DNA from: a bacterium
GTDB taxonomy: Bacteria; UBA8248
NCBI GenBank assembly: GCA_965221165.1
Contig: CBDCRP010000003.1
Location: forward strand, 960,001-1,024,000
Length of the DNA: 64,000 nt
Direction of reading: 5' to 3'
Below, in pieces: positions 2,347 through 48,221 of this stretch. A program made the position numbers and the translations under genes. The notes beneath the pieces were generated by a model. The model was not told the origin of the DNA. It was given only the letters and a program-made list of their open reading frames with translations, and made no database searches. The number at the start of each line of letters is the position of its first letter. The stretch's first letter is position 1.

Positions 2347-3303
2347 CTAACCCGCTCTCAGACGAGGGATAATTTCTTTCGCCACGATTTCAACCTGTTC
2401 CATCTCATATTTATAGGGAACGAAAATGAGCCGGTTCACCCCGGTGTCGATGTGGGCCTGTAGCTGCGCCACGCACTCATCGACATTCCCCATCACGGCG
2501 CTCTCGGCCGTGGATTCACTCCAGGAAGCATAGTCCCACTCCGTGTGGAGCCATTCGTTCATCGGACCCTCGATTTCAGCGCGCGAATCGCCCACCATGA
2601 CGGGAAGCTGGTTCGTGCTCTCGAGCGCGGCGGGGTCGCGCCCCGCCTCCTCCGCAAAGCGGCATACCTTCTCCCAGGACTGCGTGAAGCTCTCCGGCGT
2701 ATAAAAATATGTGAGCCAGCCGTCGCCTTTTTCTCCGGCGCGCTTGAGCACGCGGTCGACGTAGCCCCCGATGAGAATGCCCGGCCTCGGGCTTTGCACG
2801 GGCTTGGGGAACATGACGGAATTTCTGAGGTTGTACTGCCCATATTCCGCGCGCACCATATCCTCGGTCCACAGCCTTGTGATGATTTCGATGTTCTGAT
2901 CCATGATGTTGCCGCGCTTCTCGAAGGGAACGCCCACGGCATCGAACTCGCGCTTGTACCAGCCCGACGCCATGCCCACGATGAGGCGGCCATTCGATAT
3001 CTGATCGATGCTCGAAAGCTGTTTCGCCAGGACGAGCGGATTCCTGAGCGGCAAGACGAGCACGCCCGTGCCGAGTTTGATTCTGCTCGTCCGCGCGGCC
3101 ACCGCCGTCAGAAGCGTCAACGACTCGATGATGGGGAAGTGCGGCTCCACGCCCAGCAGAATATGGTCCCACACCCACAGGGACTCGAAACCCAGCTCCT
3201 CCATGGCGACGCCGTATTCGATGAGCGCCGCCGGGTCGGGGAGTTCGGGATAAGCGGTGAAATTCCGCATGGCGATTCCGTATTTGACGTCTTTTCCTGA
3301 CAT
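2347..3303 (-). CDS. LLM (luciferase-like) flavin-dependent oxidoreductase
   Basis: GFESLWVWDH, RTSRIKLGTGVLVLPLRNP, SNGRLIVG, PKPVQ, GDGW. Confidence 0.92.
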   Translation of the reverse strand: MSGKDVKYGIAMRNFTAYPELPDPAALIEYGVAMEELGFESLWVWDHILLGVEPHFPIIESLTLLTAVAARTSRIKLGTGVLVLPLRNPLVLAKQLSSIDQISNGRLIVGMASGWYKREFDAVGVPFEKRGNIMDQNIEIITRLWTEDMVRAEYGQYNLRNSVMFPKPVQSPRPGILIGGYVDRVLKRAGEKGDGWLTYFYTPESFTQSWEKVCRFAEEAGRDPAALESTNQLPVMVGDSRAEIEGPMNEWLHTEWDYASWSESTAESAVMGNVDECVAQLQAHIDTGVNRLIFVPYKYEMEQVEIVAKEIIPRLRAG

Positions 3304-3318
3304 GTAGGTTTCCTCGCT

Positions 3319-4584
3319 TTATTCCGCCCCGCACCAATCCAGGATGGAGAGCGCCAGTGTTTTCGTCGCGTCGATCACGTCCTCCACCGCCACCCATTCG
3401 TTGTTCGCGTGCATCTGGGTGGTGGGGCCCGGGCCGAAAATCACCGTCGGGATGCCGAAGCCGTTCAAAAAGCGCGTATCGGCCGCTCCCTGACGTCCGG
3501 ATATTTCAGGCGTTCCGCCCGATATTTCCTGATAGGCGTTCGCCACCGTCTTGACGATTGCGTGGTCGGCATCGACCGCGGCCGATTCGGCGTAATACCC
3601 CACGAAACGAACTTCGGGCGGATGATCCTTCATCCAAGGGTCATCTTGCGCAGCCTGCACCACCTGATCGACCAGGCTCTGCTTGGCCGCGTCGTGATCC
3701 TCGCCGGGCACGGTGGCGAGACTCCCCTTGAGCACGCAGGTATCCGGGAAAGCGCTCGGAAAACTCCCGGCCTCCATGGAGCCGACCATGCAGGGAATCG
3801 CATCGATAATTTTGGGATACAGCGGATGGGATACCGTCTCCAGGCGTTTTTTCTCGAGATCGGCCACCGCCTGGACGATCTTGTAGCCCAGGTCGATGGC
3901 GTTCACGCCCTCATACCTTCGCTGGATGCCCGCCGCCTTTCCCCTCACGAGTATCTCGAACCATATTCTGCCGATGCAGCCGGGCTGGACGGCGTTTCCG
4001 CTCGTCTCGCAGCAAATCCCCGCATCCGCCGTATAGCCCCGCAAAATGGTGTCGAGCGTGCCGTGGCCGCTCAACTCCTCATCCACGACGAAATCGAGAA
4101 TAACGTCTCCCCTGGGCCTGAGCCCCGCCGCCATGAAGCATTTGGCCGCCATCATGATGGCCGCCACTCCGCTTTTCATGTCCGAGGCGCCGCGCCCGTA
4201 CAGACGGCCGTCCTCGATGTCCGCAGAGAGCGGCCCATGCTCCCAGGCGTCGTCCGGGCCGTTCGGGACGGTATCGGTGTGGCCGTTCAGCAGAAGCGAT
4301 TTGCCCCCGCCCGAACCCTCGATCACGGCGACCACGTTCGGCCTCCCCTCATAACCCCTGGTGACGGGCACGTATTCGGGGTGTTTTTTGAGTTCCTCCC
4401 AGTCCGACTCCCAGACGTCCACCTCGACGTTCATCTCGCGAAGGAAATCCGCGATGTAGCCTTGAATCTCTTCCTCATCCCCCGTCACGCTCGGTATCTG
4501 AACGAGCTTGGCGAGCAAGGCGATTATCTCATCCCTGTGGGCGTCGACCTGGGCTAAAATTTTCTCTCTGTTCTCAGCGCTCAT
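3319..4584 (-). CDS. ArgE/DapE-family (M20) deacylase
   Basis: LLNGHTDTVP, YGRGASDMKSG, VDEE, FGPG...MH metal ligands. Confidence 0.92.
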   Translation of the reverse strand: MSAENREKILAQVDAHRDEIIALLAKLVQIPSVTGDEEEIQGYIADFLREMNVEVDVWESDWEELKKHPEYVPVTRGYEGRPNVVAVIEGSGGGKSLLLNGHTDTVPNGPDDAWEHGPLSADIEDGRLYGRGASDMKSGVAAIMMAAKCFMAAGLRPRGDVILDFVVDEELSGHGTLDTILRGYTADAGICCETSGNAVQPGCIGRIWFEILVRGKAAGIQRRYEGVNAIDLGYKIVQAVADLEKKRLETVSHPLYPKIIDAIPCMVGSMEAGSFPSAFPDTCVLKGSLATVPGEDHDAAKQSLVDQVVQAAQDDPWMKDHPPEVRFVGYYAESAAVDADHAIVKTVANAYQEISGGTPEISGRQGAADTRFLNGFGIPTVIFGPGPTTQMHANNEWVAVEDVIDATKTLALSILDWCGAE

Positions 4585-45570: not shown

Positions 45571-46266
45571 TCAAGTTTTGCGACTACGTGGTGGACGAGG
45601 AAAACCGCTGCTGAGGCCGTCGATATGTTCGAACAATTCCGGAGCGACCGTGCGCCAGAGCGGATCGAGAATGATACGCACGCCCTCTCGTCGCGCGAGT
45701 TTCGCTGCAGGAACGAAGTCGGCGTCGCCCGCGACGAGGATGATCGTATTCGCCTGTCGTTTAAGTGTGATCGACGTGATGTCTACCCCGATCCGCATAT
45801 CCACCGCTTTCTGGCGAAGGCCGAGAGCGAAATCGTCATCTTTAAGTTCGCTGACCGTAAGTTCGCCTTTCAATAGCCGTTTTTGCGGGGTTTCTTTCAG
45901 CACCCAGCCGCGTTCGCGTCGCACCTCGCCAAGCCGCACGGCGGTGTTGGGTGCGCGTCGCAGTTGCTCGAACAGGTCGTGCCTGAATTGCGCTTCATCG
46001 GTTTTTGCGTAGTCGATACTATGATTGCTGACGGGTTTGTGCTCCTTGCCGTCATAAGGGCTGGCGTCGTAATAGAAAACGCGATAGAGCAACGAGTTCA
46101 CATTGGCGGCGCAAGCGATCTTGTTCTCACGCTTCAGATGCGATGCTACCAATTGACGTATCGCCAAATTGACGGCTTTCGCGTCGTGATGTCTAATTTT
46201 CGGGCGGACTGTCGGAAGACGCTTGAGCAGATAGCCGCCGTCGATGAGAATTGCCACTTTCGCCAT
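45571..46266 (-). CDS. NYN (LabA/DUF88, PIN-fold) domain ribonuclease-like protein
   Basis: ILIDGGY, RVFYYD, QKAVDMRIGVD, AGDADFVPA acidic catalytic residues. Start set at ATG 46266. Confidence 0.9.
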   Translation of the reverse strand: MAKVAILIDGGYLLKRLPTVRPKIRHHDAKAVNLAIRQLVASHLKRENKIACAANVNSLLYRVFYYDASPYDGKEHKPVSNHSIDYAKTDEAQFRHDLFEQLRRAPNTAVRLGEVRRERGWVLKETPQKRLLKGELTVSELKDDDFALGLRQKAVDMRIGVDITSITLKRQANTIILVAGDADFVPAAKLARREGVRIILDPLWRTVAPELFEHIDGLSSGFPRPPRSRKT

Positions 46267-46291
46267 AGAAACGCCGCCGGACATAAAGACA

Positions 46292-46362
46292 TAAAAATGC
46301 CCCCAGGGATCGGCTGCGCTCATGATCGCTAGGAGCACAGCGTACTGCCAAGGGGCGAATCA
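46292..46362 (-). ncRNA. Candidate structured small RNA/attenuator upstream of the NYN gene
   Basis: GCCCCUUGG-CAGUAC-GCUGUGCUC-loop-GAGCGCAGC-CGAUC-CCUGGGGGC-AUUUUU, a two-tier stem followed by a U-tract. Confidence 0.6.
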
Positions 46363-46367
46363 AACTT

Positions 46368-46396
46368 AACATAAGACTTGTAGGCGCAAATGTCAA
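46368..46396 (-). promoter_or_regulatory. Sigma70 promoter driving the candidate RNA and NYN gene
   Basis: TTGACA (46396-91), 17 bp, TATGTT (46373-68). Confidence 0.7.
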
Positions 46397-46454: not shown

Positions 46455-48221
46455 CTACCACCCTGCGGCGTAGGATTCGCGCCTCGGGTCGGCCCCGCCG
46501 AGGAGGTAGCCCGTCTCGGGGTCTTTCACGATCGCGCAGACGCTGCCCGCAGGCCAGTGGAAATCGGGCCACGAATCGATTCTGTAGCCCAATTCTGAGA
46601 GCGCGCCGCCCACGTCTTTCAGGAGCCGCGCCTCCGCGCGTGCGCTCGCGGGTTCGTAATCGTGGGGCCAGAAGGAGTCGGGGAAATTGTAGGTGGCGGC
46701 GCGGGGAGCTTCGACCGCCATCTGCGGCTGCATGCCGAAGAGCACATGGTTCAGGAAAACTTGCAACATGACCTGGGGCTGGGTGTCGCCCCCCGGCGTG
46801 CCCAGCGTCATGTAGAACGCGCCGTCTTTAAGCGCGAGTGCGGGGTTCGGCGTGAGCCTCGGCCGCTTCCAGGGGGCCAGGCAGCTCGGATGCGCGGGGT
46901 CGAGCCAGCTTTGAGAACCGCGTCCAGAAACGGTGGCGCCCACTCCGGGGACGAAGGGCATCGCGTTCGATGGGTCCGAGGGCGTACAGGAAAAAGCGTT
47001 TCCCGCTGAATCCACCGCCGTGCAGTAGGAAGTGTCGTGCTGGTATTCGGGCGCAGCTTCTTTTGGAACCCGGTGCGCGCCATCGCAACGCCACGGATGC
47101 GCGCCCCCCTGGTGCGCCCAGGGGTCTCCGGGTTCGGGCATATCGGCGAAGGCGGCTCCTGCCTCGACCCGCTTCGCCTGTTGCGCGGCGTATTCGCGCG
47201 AGAGAAGGCCGTCTATGGGCACGTCCACGAACTCCGGATCCCCGATGTAGGCTTCTCTGTCCGCAAACGCGAGATTGAGTGCGGCCATGATGGAGTGGAG
47301 ATACCCGGAGGAATTGTGGGCCAAGGATGCGAGGTCTAAATTGGCGAGAATGTTCATCGCTTCGAGCAGCGTCGGCCCCTGACACCACGGACCGCAGGCG
47401 TAGACCTGATGGCCCATAAATTCCGTTACCACCGGTTCTTCTTCCTGAACGTGGAAATCGGCCATATCACCCAGCGTCAGCAACCCGCCGTTTCGCTGGA
47501 TGAAATCGACCATTAGGCGGGCCGTCTCTCCGGTGTAGACCTCATCGCGCGCCGCGCGCACACCCCCGGCACGCCCCCCCGCCGCTTTTTGCTCCGCGCG
47601 CACCATGCGCCTCATGGTTTCGGCCAGATCGGGAATCCGCACCCGCCCGCCCACGGGGATGAGCTCGCCTTCGGGAAAATAGATGGGCCGCGCGGATTCC
47701 CACCGGGCGTAGGATTCTTCCGCCGCCTTGATGTGGTCGTACATGAAGTTGTGCATGGGAAAGCCGTCTTCGGCCAGGGAGATGGCGTCCTCACTCACTT
47801 CCGCGAAGGTCCTTGTGCCGTAGCGCTCAAGCGCCGTGAGCCAGGCGTCGGCCGCTGCGGGCGTGACGGCGCGCCGGACTCCGGGAGGAATCTCACCATT
47901 GCAGTTTTTCTCGAACCACTCGATGGAAGCCGCCTTGGGCCAGCGGCCCAGCCCGCTGATGGTGAGGACGCGCTCTTCTTTCGCCAGATAGATCATCGTG
48001 GGCGCGACGCCCAGGAACGAAACCATGTCGGTTTGCAGGACGCTCAGGCAAATCCCCGCCGCGACGCCAGCGTCTATCGCGTTCCCGCCTTTTTCCAGGA
48101 TTCTAAGGCCCGCCTGGCTCGCGTAATGATGGCCGGATACGACCATCGCCTCGCGCGCGATGAACTGCGGCCTGTGGGAGATGTATTCTTGGCCATCGGG
48201 TGTGGTGTGGCGAAACGCCAT
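46455..48221 (-). CDS. ggt: Gamma-glutamyltransferase family (Ntn hydrolase)
   Basis: GGNAIDAGVA, AFADRE, DTS nucleophile Thr, GTPGGDTQPQ, GGADPRR. Confidence 0.92.
   Translation of the reverse strand: MAFRHTTPDGQEYISHRPQFIAREAMVVSGHHYASQAGLRILEKGGNAIDAGVAAGICLSVLQTDMVSFLGVAPTMIYLAKEERVLTISGLGRWPKAASIEWFEKNCNGEIPPGVRRAVTPAAADAWLTALERYGTRTFAEVSEDAISLAEDGFPMHNFMYDHIKAAEESYARWESARPIYFPEGELIPVGGRVRIPDLAETMRRMVRAEQKAAGGRAGGVRAARDEVYTGETARLMVDFIQRNGGLLTLGDMADFHVQEEEPVVTEFMGHQVYACGPWCQGPTLLEAMNILANLDLASLAHNSSGYLHSIMAALNLAFADREAYIGDPEFVDVPIDGLLSREYAAQQAKRVEAGAAFADMPEPGDPWAHQGGAHPWRCDGAHRVPKEAAPEYQHDTSYCTAVDSAGNAFSCTPSDPSNAMPFVPGVGATVSGRGSQSWLDPAHPSCLAPWKRPRLTPNPALALKDGAFYMTLGTPGGDTQPQVMLQVFLNHVLFGMQPQMAVEAPRAATYNFPDSFWPHDYEPASARAEARLLKDVGGALSELGYRIDSWPDFHWPAGSVCAIVKDPETGYLLGGADPRRESYAAGW

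Follow-up and report, generated by a model that had tools for sequence, protein, structure and literature searches.

A structured leader RNA linked to LabA-like NYN nuclease genes in a mobile bacterial cassette: candidate feedback attenuator or RNA antitoxin

What is the role of a hairpin RNA that appears to be transcribed from its own promoter and to end in a run of uridines immediately upstream of a nuclease gene? The question is raised by a 64,000-nt stretch of bacterial DNA (hereafter the window) that carries, on the minus strand, a gene for a NYN/LabA-like nuclease (45571..46266; 231 aa from the family-conserved start ATGGCG at 46266). An earlier note on this DNA had suggested that the RNA is the antitoxin of the nuclease in a type III-like toxin–antitoxin system. 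Our analysis indicates that RNA and nuclease very probably form a functional pair. The reading that we prefer, and to which we give somewhat less than an even chance, is that of a portable RNA–nuclease cassette in which the terminator-embedded leader would be the nuclease's own RNA ligand; it would attenuate nuclease synthesis by feedback and might also be an antitoxin in trans.

The predicted sigma-70-type promoter (46368..46396, minus strand) lies where the earlier note had placed it, with TTGACA at 46396-46391, a spacer of 17 nt and TATGTT at 46373-46368; it matches the consensus at 10 of 12 positions and is one of two promoter-like sites in a 3-kb scan for which 0.7 were expected. Its spacing predicts a transcription start at or near A46360, the first residue of a conserved 5′ leader AUUC (46357..46360, minus strand; consensus AUYC), whose four positions are occupied by A in 58, U in 57, Y in 61 and C in 57 of the 65 sequences of our alignment A6 (columns 1-4). 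The structured RNA core that follows (46299..46356, minus strand) was folded with RNAfold and scores 97.9 and 86.9 bits with covariance models R1 and R2, respectively. All the parts of the two-tier hairpin described previously could be located. The outer stem P1 pairs GCCCCUUGG (46356-46348) with CCUGGGGGC (46307-46299), including one U.U and one U-G, and the 9-bp inner stem P2 pairs GCUGUGCUC (46341-46333) with GAGCGCAGC (46321-46313); the two are separated by the internal loop CAGUAC (46347-46342)/CGAUC (46312-46308), and P2 is capped by the 11-nt apical loop CUAGCGAUCAU (46332-46322). The U tract AUUUUU (46293..46298, minus strand) comes directly 3′ of P1 and ends 26 nt before the conserved start codon, as against the 25 nt or so estimated earlier. 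With a GC-rich P1 and a U run at once after it, the element bears the signature of an intrinsic terminator, at which termination is predicted; a simple terminator scanner, which accepts loops of at most 8 nt, does not list it. Just 3′ of the stem lies an 8-nt tandem duplication, UUUAUGUC repeated twice (46280..46295, minus strand), found only in the window genome and absent from the relatives L002-L004; contigs from three runs lack 7 nt at 46286. The folding energy of −29.5 kcal/mol (z −2.69), equalled by 3 of 200 shuffled sequences, makes the single-sequence fold only moderately unusual in itself, and the case for more than chance rests on comparison.

The protein fits the description of a stand-alone NYN protein that keeps its Asp residues. 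It matches Pfam PF01936 with 40 bits (cut-off 24.2; E 6.9e-10), over residues 150-199 only, and an alignment of 30 homologues shows no variation at D9, D67, D156, D162, D181 and D183, some of which are presumably catalytic. In an AlphaFold2 model (pLDDT 84.7), the protein is predicted to adopt a PIN-like alpha/beta fold with conserved acidic residues. The top structural matches returned by Foldseek were the LabA-like protein VPA0982 (2qip, E 5e-5) and the NYN domain of MARF1 (E 6.7e-4), and the NYN domains 5yaa and 6fdl were, with 2qip, among the best. A sequence search of the PDB gave no significant match, and NCBIfam and PADLOC gave weak, sub-threshold matches only, including a PADLOC candidate NYN model at E 2e-4. 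The LabA-like NYN family is very large: for the window subfamily alone, 7434 database clusters of the 8000 scored are homologues at E ≤ 0.001. An in-frame ATG at 46284, 8 nt past the U tract, would yield a 237-aa form and is the start used in the gene calls of close relatives. The flanking genes, ggt (PF01019) and a DCC1-like gene (PF04134), are those named previously. Only 188 nt separate the stop codon of ggt (46455) from the start of NYN, too little for a protein gene of antitoxin size, in agreement with the earlier claim that no such gene adjoins.

The association of the RNA with NYN genes extends far beyond the window. When a covariance model made from the window element was used to search upstream of NYN homologues, the motif was found directly upstream of NYN, on the same strand, at 71 of 80 loci in at least seven phyla, 66 of them at E ≤ 2.3e-6 and five more at E 5.5e-4 to 0.037. 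It was likewise present upstream of NYN in 38 of 54 viral contigs; among individual replicons, it scored 52.5 bits in phage phiE202, 40.5 in phage Mcat4, 30.8 in a Xanthomonas plasmid and 22.3 in a Thermus plasmid, while a relative from a lambdoid phage matched model R2 weakly (11 bits, E 0.08). Every locus of the subfamily for which upstream sequence was available had a hairpin there, and in NYN paralogues within the host genus, too, the start codon is immediately preceded by a promoter, hairpins and a terminator. The motif occurs once in the window's own genome, once in each of five other genomes and once in each of five phage records, and in tandem (two copies) at only one of the 80 loci, L035. 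The gene downstream is NYN throughout, with the exception of one integrase gene in a NYN-bearing prophage, which is what would be expected of an operator for a trans-acting protein encoded alongside. A promoter-like site occupies the same position relative to the stem at 53 of the 71 loci, the distance from the end of the −10 element to P1 being 10-13 nt in 48 of these 53. The phylum scan gave 15 weak R2 matches (≤ 28.6 bits), and the 11 of them that were inspected proved to be coding sequence or generic GC-stem terminators. Rfam 15 contains no match to the element in a search of the window at E ≤ 10, nor to 10 related loci at E ≤ 1. The check proposed with the original idea, a search for a conserved covarying structure upstream of NYN homologues and its comparison with Rfam, returned a structure present across phyla and belonging to no catalogued family. 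No conserved protein partner emerged across loci from neighbour clustering, which was polluted by shadow ORFs in GC-rich DNA and served only to choose loci for Pfam and PADLOC. In the freely accessible article texts covered, we found no description of a structured RNA upstream of a NYN gene, or of an RNA antitoxin associated with such a gene.

The alignments show which features of this RNA are conserved. Double changes affect 17 of the 18 stem pairs and both P1 and P2 covary; 88.9% of the paired cells are occupied by pairs as compared with 77.4% in shuffled alignments, none of 500 shuffles reached the observed score, and slid controls gave 28-58%. Parts of both stems were also recovered by RNAalifold from an unfitted MAFFT alignment; the recovery of only 10 pairs from alignment A3 is due to MAFFT, which in A2 and A3 misregisters the 3′ halves of one RNA class. 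Non-canonical combinations are asymmetric, G-U occurring 50 times and A-C 11 times, which indicates that the fold belongs to the sense RNA. Within the internal loop, AGUA is kept in 62-63 of the 65 sequences of A6, and the opposite strand has G in 57 and A in 63, followed by a third base that varies (U 25, C 15, A 14, G 11). In the loop E or sarcin–ricin (bulged-G) consensus, AGUA stands opposite GAA in an internal loop. An apical RAUCAU strand remains constant while the stems covary, as does a U.U/U.U step within the terminator stem that is mismatched in most cases, and columns 118-122, which correspond to the U tract, are U in 53-62 of the 65 sequences. A variable hairpin, P3, is inserted in 32 of the 33 long apical regions.

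The cassette is mobile and frequently occupies defence or moron positions. In the host genus it is patchy (4 of 23 genomes), and most other members hold a different two-gene cassette in the slot between ggt and the DCC1-like gene, one with a weak, below cut-off PIN match (E 0.01). In the family around G058, it is present in at least 2 of 151 genomes, a lower bound given that about 31 candidates were scored per genome. Conjugative plasmids and temperate phages carry it: in phiE202 it lies beside a toxin–antitoxin pair and an integrase, and in a lambdoid phage between the repressor and N genes, an interval that we take to be the rex position. At loci L016 and L065 and in a Thermus plasmid, it is flanked by a helicase resembling those of type III restriction systems on one side and by methyltransferase/HNH genes on the other. 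Two genomes, G016 and G018, have kept promoter and RNA intact and have lost NYN wholly, both deletions stopping within 12 nt of the 3′ side of the hairpin.

According to the reading that we prefer, the cassette would comprise its own promoter, a structured leader RNA of 60-100 nt and the gene for a NYN-fold nuclease. Transcription would begin 3-5 nt 5′ of the outer stem, so that the hairpin would be made first in nearly every transcript. The outer stem and the U tract probably form an intrinsic terminator at which the majority of transcripts are expected to end, yielding a short RNA; NYN mRNA would arise from read-through only, and the nuclease would thus be kept scarce. The loop-E/sarcin–ricin-like AGUA/GA loop, the RAUCAU strand and the U.U/U.U step would constitute a putative protein-binding site, and the protein bound there would most likely be NYN itself. 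Binding or cleavage by NYN would then close or stabilise the terminator and so feed back on NYN synthesis, this being the direction that we infer, and surplus short RNA could titrate the protein as well. A contig from a metatranscriptome library that spans the leader, the U tract and part of NYN (46025-46349) gives a weak hint of read-through; contigs from RNA libraries cover part of the window in one run only, may reflect DNA carry-over and carry no information on ends, strand or level. Some observations sit less well with such an attenuator. A purely cis-acting leader would be useless in the two genomes devoid of NYN, unless the deletions are recent or the RNA functions in trans; a stem as strong as this one (−29.5 kcal/mol) may terminate constitutively with no need for a protein; and mobile, defence-island-like contexts fit a toxin–antitoxin or abortive-infection system at least equally well.

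A reading along the lines of the earlier note, in which a toxic NYN RNase would be neutralised in trans by an excess of the terminated RNA and freed when infection or loss of the cassette lowers RNA levels, is a real possibility, although we consider it less likely than not. The cassette shares the operon logic of type III systems, namely a promoter, an RNA, a Rho-independent terminator and a nuclease gene in this order: a single promoter is predicted upstream of both RNA and nuclease gene, the 26-nt gap between U tract and start codon leaving no space for a second one, and the terminator between them is the same structure as the RNA. The absence of a conserved protein partner, the sporadic occurrence in the genus (4/23) and in another family (at least 2/151), the conjugative plasmids and temperate phages among the carriers, the presumed rex position, the neighbouring toxin–antitoxin pair and integrase in phiE202, the restriction-like surroundings at L016, L065 and in the Thermus plasmid, and the alternative cassette with its weak PIN match in the same chromosomal slot all point the same way. 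So do the loci that have the RNA without NYN, set against the presence of a hairpin at every subfamily locus with available upstream sequence, but this asymmetry comes down to two deletion events and to the way in which the loci were collected. Moreover, the RNA is a single hairpin and terminator in one, with nothing like the repeat array of type III antitoxins (a search with TRF for tandem repeats at the locus found only the 8-nt duplication 3′ of the stem), and the NYN fold is not ToxN/AbiQ-like. No membership in the ToxN/AbiQ, CptN or TenpN families was found, Pfam giving NYN only and the best structures being NYN domains; the PADLOC match is weak, and the motif once stands before a prophage integrase, a position that a regulatory operator explains no less well than an antitoxin does. 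The cassette falls outside the type III families. What survives of the type III-like claim is the operon logic, the mobility and the covarying RNA linked to NYN, whereas the repeat array and the ToxN-like fold are missing.

Other explanations dispense with recognition by NYN altogether. The hairpin might respond to a small molecule or ion, or else to a transcription factor of host or phage origin, for example an antiterminator. Many OFF switches are built in this way, with constant unpaired nucleotides inside a terminator; the U.U/U.U step would make the terminator stem tunable, and an integrase gene stands behind one copy. The conserved aptamer of a metabolite riboswitch would be expected before metabolism or transport genes of one ligand, usually from several gene families, but NYN follows at every locus found, plus the one integrase, so that a single gene family without metabolic or transport link lies downstream in at least seven phyla; since the transcript is predicted to begin at the base of the stem, there is also no alternative antiterminator sequence, and no related Rfam family exists. 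We regard this explanation as unlikely. Slightly less likely still, in our view, is that the hairpin binds no specific ligand and is just a common constitutive terminator, an insulator or a 5′ stabiliser, which would block read-through, here from ggt, and allow leaky, low NYN expression. The hairpin does lie 98 nt past the ggt stop on the same strand, with no other terminator found by the scan in between, and its GC-rich stem is followed by a U tract. Such elements, however, do not keep AGUA/GA, RAUCAU and a common architecture across phyla with covarying stems, and in most loci the promoter separates the upstream gene from the hairpin. The element also travels with NYN rather than with ggt: it adjoins NYN where ggt is still upstream at 1.4 kb (G013), elsewhere on the chromosome in G016, and in plasmids and phages devoid of ggt, which disposes of the notion that it is merely the ggt terminator. 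A DNA-level role, in which the hairpin forms in single-stranded DNA and is the site at which the cassette recombines or inserts, would account for the mobility, for the exchange of cassettes in the ggt–DCC1 slot and for NYN deletions that both end 12 nt or less from the 3′ side of the hairpin. We hold it to be very unlikely, as the excess of G-U over A-C (50 vs 11) shows that only the transcribed strand has kept its pairing, the positions of promoter and U tract are conserved, and no recombinase is consistently linked.

Known systems offer partial parallels. Type III toxin–antitoxin loci, as described in PMC5086642, consist of one promoter, a non-coding RNA, a Rho-independent terminator and an endoribonuclease gene, and are borne by plasmids and phages. 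ToxIN, CptIN, TenpIN and AbiQ share with the window cassette the gene order and the expected excess of short RNA over read-through mRNA; their antitoxin, in contrast, is a tandem array of 34-36 nt repeats and their toxin ToxN-like, whereas the window has one hairpin, itself the terminator, and a NYN/PIN-like protein. A second parallel is provided by Escherichia coli, in which the rne 5′ UTR and the rnc and pnp leaders are recognised by the encoded nuclease, limiting its own synthesis. Like the leader in our proposal, these are structured leaders in the nuclease's own transcript, but they work via mRNA decay in housekeeping genes and not through a promoter-proximal terminator in a mobile cassette. 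Rsr (Ro60)–Y RNA loci resemble the window cassette in that the gene of an RNA-binding protein adjoins the sequence encoding the structured non-coding RNA that this protein binds, although Y RNA is a separate gene rather than the rsr leader or terminator and Ro is not a nuclease. The eukaryotic NYN-related, PIN-like RNase Regnase-1 (ZC3H12A) recognises specific stem-loops, including one in its own mRNA. It acts on 3′ UTRs and has a different domain context, so that only the fold class is common to both; Pfam places it in another family than PF01936 (PMC5499597, section 22). The LabA-like NYN proteins (COG1432; 2qip VPA0982; MARF1 NYN) match the window protein in family and fold, and its acidic residues are invariant among its homologues, but the window subfamily lacks an OST-HTH domain and has an insert, some 80 residues long, at about positions 70-150. 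Section 22 of PMC5499597 states that, as of 2017, nuclease studies of any PF01936 member were lacking, and that section mentions no RNA partner.

A motif so strictly linked to NYN across phyla thus provides a concrete candidate RNA ligand for the LabA-like NYN family, and an uncatalogued structured RNA, of which Rfam 15 has none, is added to the known set. It is conceivable, though on balance doubtful, that the cassette represents a new RNA–protein class of toxin–antitoxin or abortive-infection systems, spread on phages, plasmids and chromosomal islands among eight or more bacterial phyla, in which a single structured RNA that is also the operon terminator neutralises a NYN (PIN-like) nuclease. 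To our knowledge, the known antitoxins of PIN-like nucleases are proteins. If the toxin–antitoxin reading were true, RNA antitoxins would join the protein ones of these nucleases, and a first function could be assigned to the large LabA-like NYN family. The cassette is carried by temperate phages and conjugative plasmids of culturable bacteria, which makes the choice between regulator and RNA antitoxin answerable by ordinary genetics; either outcome would be new for PIN-like nucleases.

Eighty NYN loci were taken from species-representative genomes of Binatia, Alpha- and Gammaproteobacteria, Chloroflexota, Bacteroidota, Acidobacteriota, Verrucomicrobiota and others, and almost throughout them the same upstream pattern could be read directly: AUYC-GCCCCUUGG-CAGUAC-stem-loop-stem-CGAYC-CCUUGGGGC-UUUUU. 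A covariance model built from seven sequences (R1) matched 66 of the 80 loci directly upstream of the NYN gene and on the same strand (E ≤ 2.3e-6), and five more at the equivalent place (E 5.5e-4 to 0.037). Six loci from Bacteroidales and Opitutales carry, by eye, a variant hairpin and a U run, while in the other three the contig holds no sequence upstream of NYN. In an alignment of 65 sequences, which was fitted to the covariance model and thus favours the structure, paired cells amount to 88.9% as compared with 77.4% in shuffles, 17 of the 18 pairs show changes on both sides, and sliding the partner columns leaves a pairing of only 28–58%. RNAalifold, run on an unfitted MAFFT alignment, recovered parts of both stems, and 6 of its 14 sequences have a GC pair exchanged for AU. 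The conserved covarying structure that the earlier note proposed to seek upstream of NYN homologues is therefore present, in 71 of the 80 loci and with a covariation score reached by none of 500 shuffles; the comparison with Rfam 15 that it likewise proposed gave no matching family for the window or for ten relatives. No description of the leader RNA was found in the main texts of openly accessible articles.

On the minus strand of the window, the ggt gene ends at 46455 and is followed by a sigma-70-type promoter (TTGACA-17 nt-TATGTT, 46396–46368; 10 of 12 matches), 7 nt past which come AUUC (46360–46357), a two-tier hairpin of 58 nt (46356–46299) and the tail AUUUUU (46298–46293); the NYN gene runs from the family-conserved ATG at 46266 to a stop at 45571. 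The computed fold of the hairpin (−29.5 kcal/mol) agrees with the structure already drawn from the sequence, and its z-score of −2.69 is by itself unremarkable. A 255-aa ORF that spans the hairpin region is not coding; relatives show a 7–8-nt indel and inserts of many lengths there. Directly 3′ of the terminator stem, the window has an 8-nt tandem duplication (UUUAUGUC twice on the minus strand, 46280–46295), which lengthens the spacer, brings in an out-of-frame ATG and is missing in close relatives and in contigs of three runs. Across the family, stem P1 consists of nine pairs, namely five G–C pairs beside the U tract, two positions that lack pairing in 40 and 51 of the 65 sequences, usually as U.U, and a further two pairs. 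Almost no variation is seen in the internal loop: AGUA occurs in 62–63 of 65 sequences and is faced by G (57 sequences) and A (63 sequences), the next base being variable, an arrangement that presumably resembles the loop-E/sarcin–ricin motif. Stem P2 shows the most variation and the most covariation. The apical region is 7–11 nt long in 32 sequences and 15–45 nt in 33, of which 32 fold an additional hairpin there, P3, with a conserved RAUCAU strand after it. The U tract is conserved as well. The sole repeat-like case among the 80 loci is found in Poriferihabitaceae, where two tandem RNA motifs (L035:2780–2859 and 2868–2951) precede one NYN gene.

At a threshold of at least 8 of 12 matches, a promoter-like site lies before the stem in 53 of the 71 loci, and in 48 of these 53 its −10 element ends 10–13 nt before the stem; Bacteroidota loci have, by eye, TAnnTTTG-like boxes in place of the usual promoter, TAnnTTTG being the consensus box in that phylum. 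Judging from this position, transcription should start 3–5 nt before P1, so that each NYN transcript would pass the terminator. A contig from the metatranscriptome library of a related strain, which runs from the hairpin across the U tract into NYN coding sequence (46025–46349), is a weak hint of read-through, since RNA ends are not visible in contigs and the library may contain carried-over DNA. The possibility, raised at the outset, that the hairpin is only the terminator of ggt does not hold: the RNA stays beside NYN in genome G013 though 1.4 kb away from ggt, and in genome G016 it lies elsewhere in the chromosome. The window copy may terminate ggt as well, but this is not its main role. 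A second NYN family in the genus (~36% identity; L005, L006, L007 and L012) has its own conserved leader ~170 nt upstream, in which a consensus-like promoter precedes a small hairpin, and a strong GC terminator reaches to within a few nucleotides of the TTG start. This different leader suggests that NYN genes generally carry a terminator hairpin close to their promoter.

The window protein matches Pfam NYN with 40 bits (cut-off 24.2). Its AlphaFold2 model (pLDDT 84.7) is closest to the LabA-like protein 2qip and the NYN domain of MARF1, with an additional predicted region of ~80 residues. Thirty homologues share six aspartates without exception, and the subfamily comprises at least 7434 clusters with E ≤ 0.001 among 8000 scored. 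Section 22 of PMC5499597 counts no PF01936 protein studied as a nuclease by 2017, and names no RNA partner there. At one locus (L060:2848–3525), the NYN match does not begin until residue 53, and the place expected for the N-terminus is taken by the RNA motif, which reflects a truncated gene or an assembly problem.

Within the host genus, NYN orthologues (86–98% identity) occur in 4 of 23 genomes, and a scan of another family gave at least 2 carriers among 151 genomes. One copy of the RNA is present in its own genome, and one in each of five other carrier genomes and five phage records. Full-length NYN relatives (37–46% identity) are present on 163 plasmid records, among them 134 from Campylobacter (mostly conjugative), 14 from Xanthomonas and 2 from Thermus, and on 65 phage records, 48 of them from Stx2a-converting phages and others from Moraxella phage Mcat4 and Burkholderia phage phiE202. 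By the broader covariance model R2, the motif precedes NYN in 38 of 54 IMG/VR loci, and it lies just upstream of NYN in phiE202 (52.5 bits), Mcat4 (40.5 bits), a Xanthomonas plasmid (30.8 bits), a Thermus plasmid (22.3 bits) and lambdoid phage ev099 (11 bits, E 0.08). The cassette lies between the repressor and N genes in a lambdoid phage, beside a TA pair and the integrase in phiE202, and between IS elements in Xanthomonas. On the Thermus plasmid and at L016 and L065, it is flanked on one side by a type III restriction-like helicase and on the other by methyltransferase/HNH genes. These contexts are accessory and the cassette is mobile. About a quarter of the loci have NYN placed between a type III restriction-like helicase-nuclease on one side and, on the other, genes with matches to the N-terminus of a type III methyltransferase and to an HNH nuclease, a gene order unusual for an R-M locus (L016:252–5229, L065:57–5496, L146:1–5687).

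The slot between ggt and the DCC1-like gene exists in four states in the genus. Promoter, RNA and NYN fill it in G000, G007 and G004, and also in G013 with an additional 1.4 kb. In G018 it holds promoter and RNA only (L097:1173–1242; model score 94.9 bits), the sequence diverging immediately past the U tract. Seven genomes carry a two-gene cassette instead (L098:2448–3198 in G003; also L099, L102, L104, L105, L107 and L110), and G022 a decayed copy (L096); a 94-aa gene without family match is followed after 4 nt by one of 153 aa whose PIN match is sub-threshold (E 0.01), and the two look like a type II TA-like pair in the slot of the RNA–NYN cassette. Finally, the slot is an empty spacer of ~200 nt in G016 and G009. 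A second RNA-only locus, elsewhere in G016 (L114:1501–1570) and with promoter and U tract intact like that of G018, has a hairpin identical to the window's, and similarity stops 12 nt past the U tract. The two deletion end points differ, no NYN match was found in either genome (completeness 97% for G016 and 93% for G018), and NYN has been lost at least twice with promoter and RNA left intact; the RNA-only state was seen again in a DNA contig of another run. In G001, a decayed cassette (L119:1501–1700) has AGUA changed to GGGA and NYN reduced to a degenerate N-terminus. GC-rich palindromes (e.g. GGGACAGGTCGCGACCTGTCCC and GGGCGGACACATGGGTCCGCCC) are found repeatedly next to the cassette sites of the genus (~140–170 nt upstream of the promoter in L003, L114:1405–1435, gaps of L097 and L103) and are possibly REP-like elements marking insertion/deletion hot spots.

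Constant unpaired bases in covarying stems, association with a single gene and single copy number point to a protein-binding site, of which the NYN protein encoded next to it is the obvious candidate ligand. These signs lead us to favour, at a little under even chances, an NYN-responsive attenuator. The hairpin would halt most transcripts, NYN would tune this stop by binding the AGUA/GA loop together with the mismatched stem, and some of the protein may in addition be titrated by the short RNA that is set free. Such a leader is akin to those through which rne, rnc and pnp are autoregulated, and its binding is akin to the stem-loop recognition by Regnase-1. An operator-like role is supported by a provirus (L157) with a clear motif copy (37 bits, 2437–2500) and U tract before a tyrosine integrase gene (2519–3625), 250 nt downstream of an NYN gene whose own leader is a divergent hairpin variant. 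A riboswitch or an attenuator answering to another factor is improbable, and a plain terminator slightly more so. A site acting at the DNA level is hardly credible; G–U pairs outnumber A–C pairs in the leader (50 versus 11), and the pairing is therefore maintained on the sense strand, as RNA.

The main rival, which we regard as possible but rather unlikely, is a true RNA antitoxin with a mode of action like that of type III TA systems. It is favoured by the RNA-only remnants, by the alternation of this and the two-gene cassette in one slot, and by contexts that are mobile and resemble defence loci. Among loci of the subfamily with upstream sequence, no NYN gene lacking a hairpin was seen, and RNA-only without NYN-only loci is the asymmetry that antitoxin logic predicts, although the events behind it are few and it depends on the locus collection. 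The type III-like system proposed in the earlier note survives in its operon layout, which matches that of type III TA loci as PMC5086642 describes them. In two defining traits it departs from these, as the RNA has no repeat array and the protein is not ToxN-like, and the cassette is therefore not a type III member, although it may have a like mode of action. The two readings overlap and are told apart only by whether a toxic protein is the trans target of the RNA. Whether as NYN-responsive attenuator or as antitoxin, the leader RNA is a real, widespread and uncatalogued motif, paired with an uncharacterised nuclease family.
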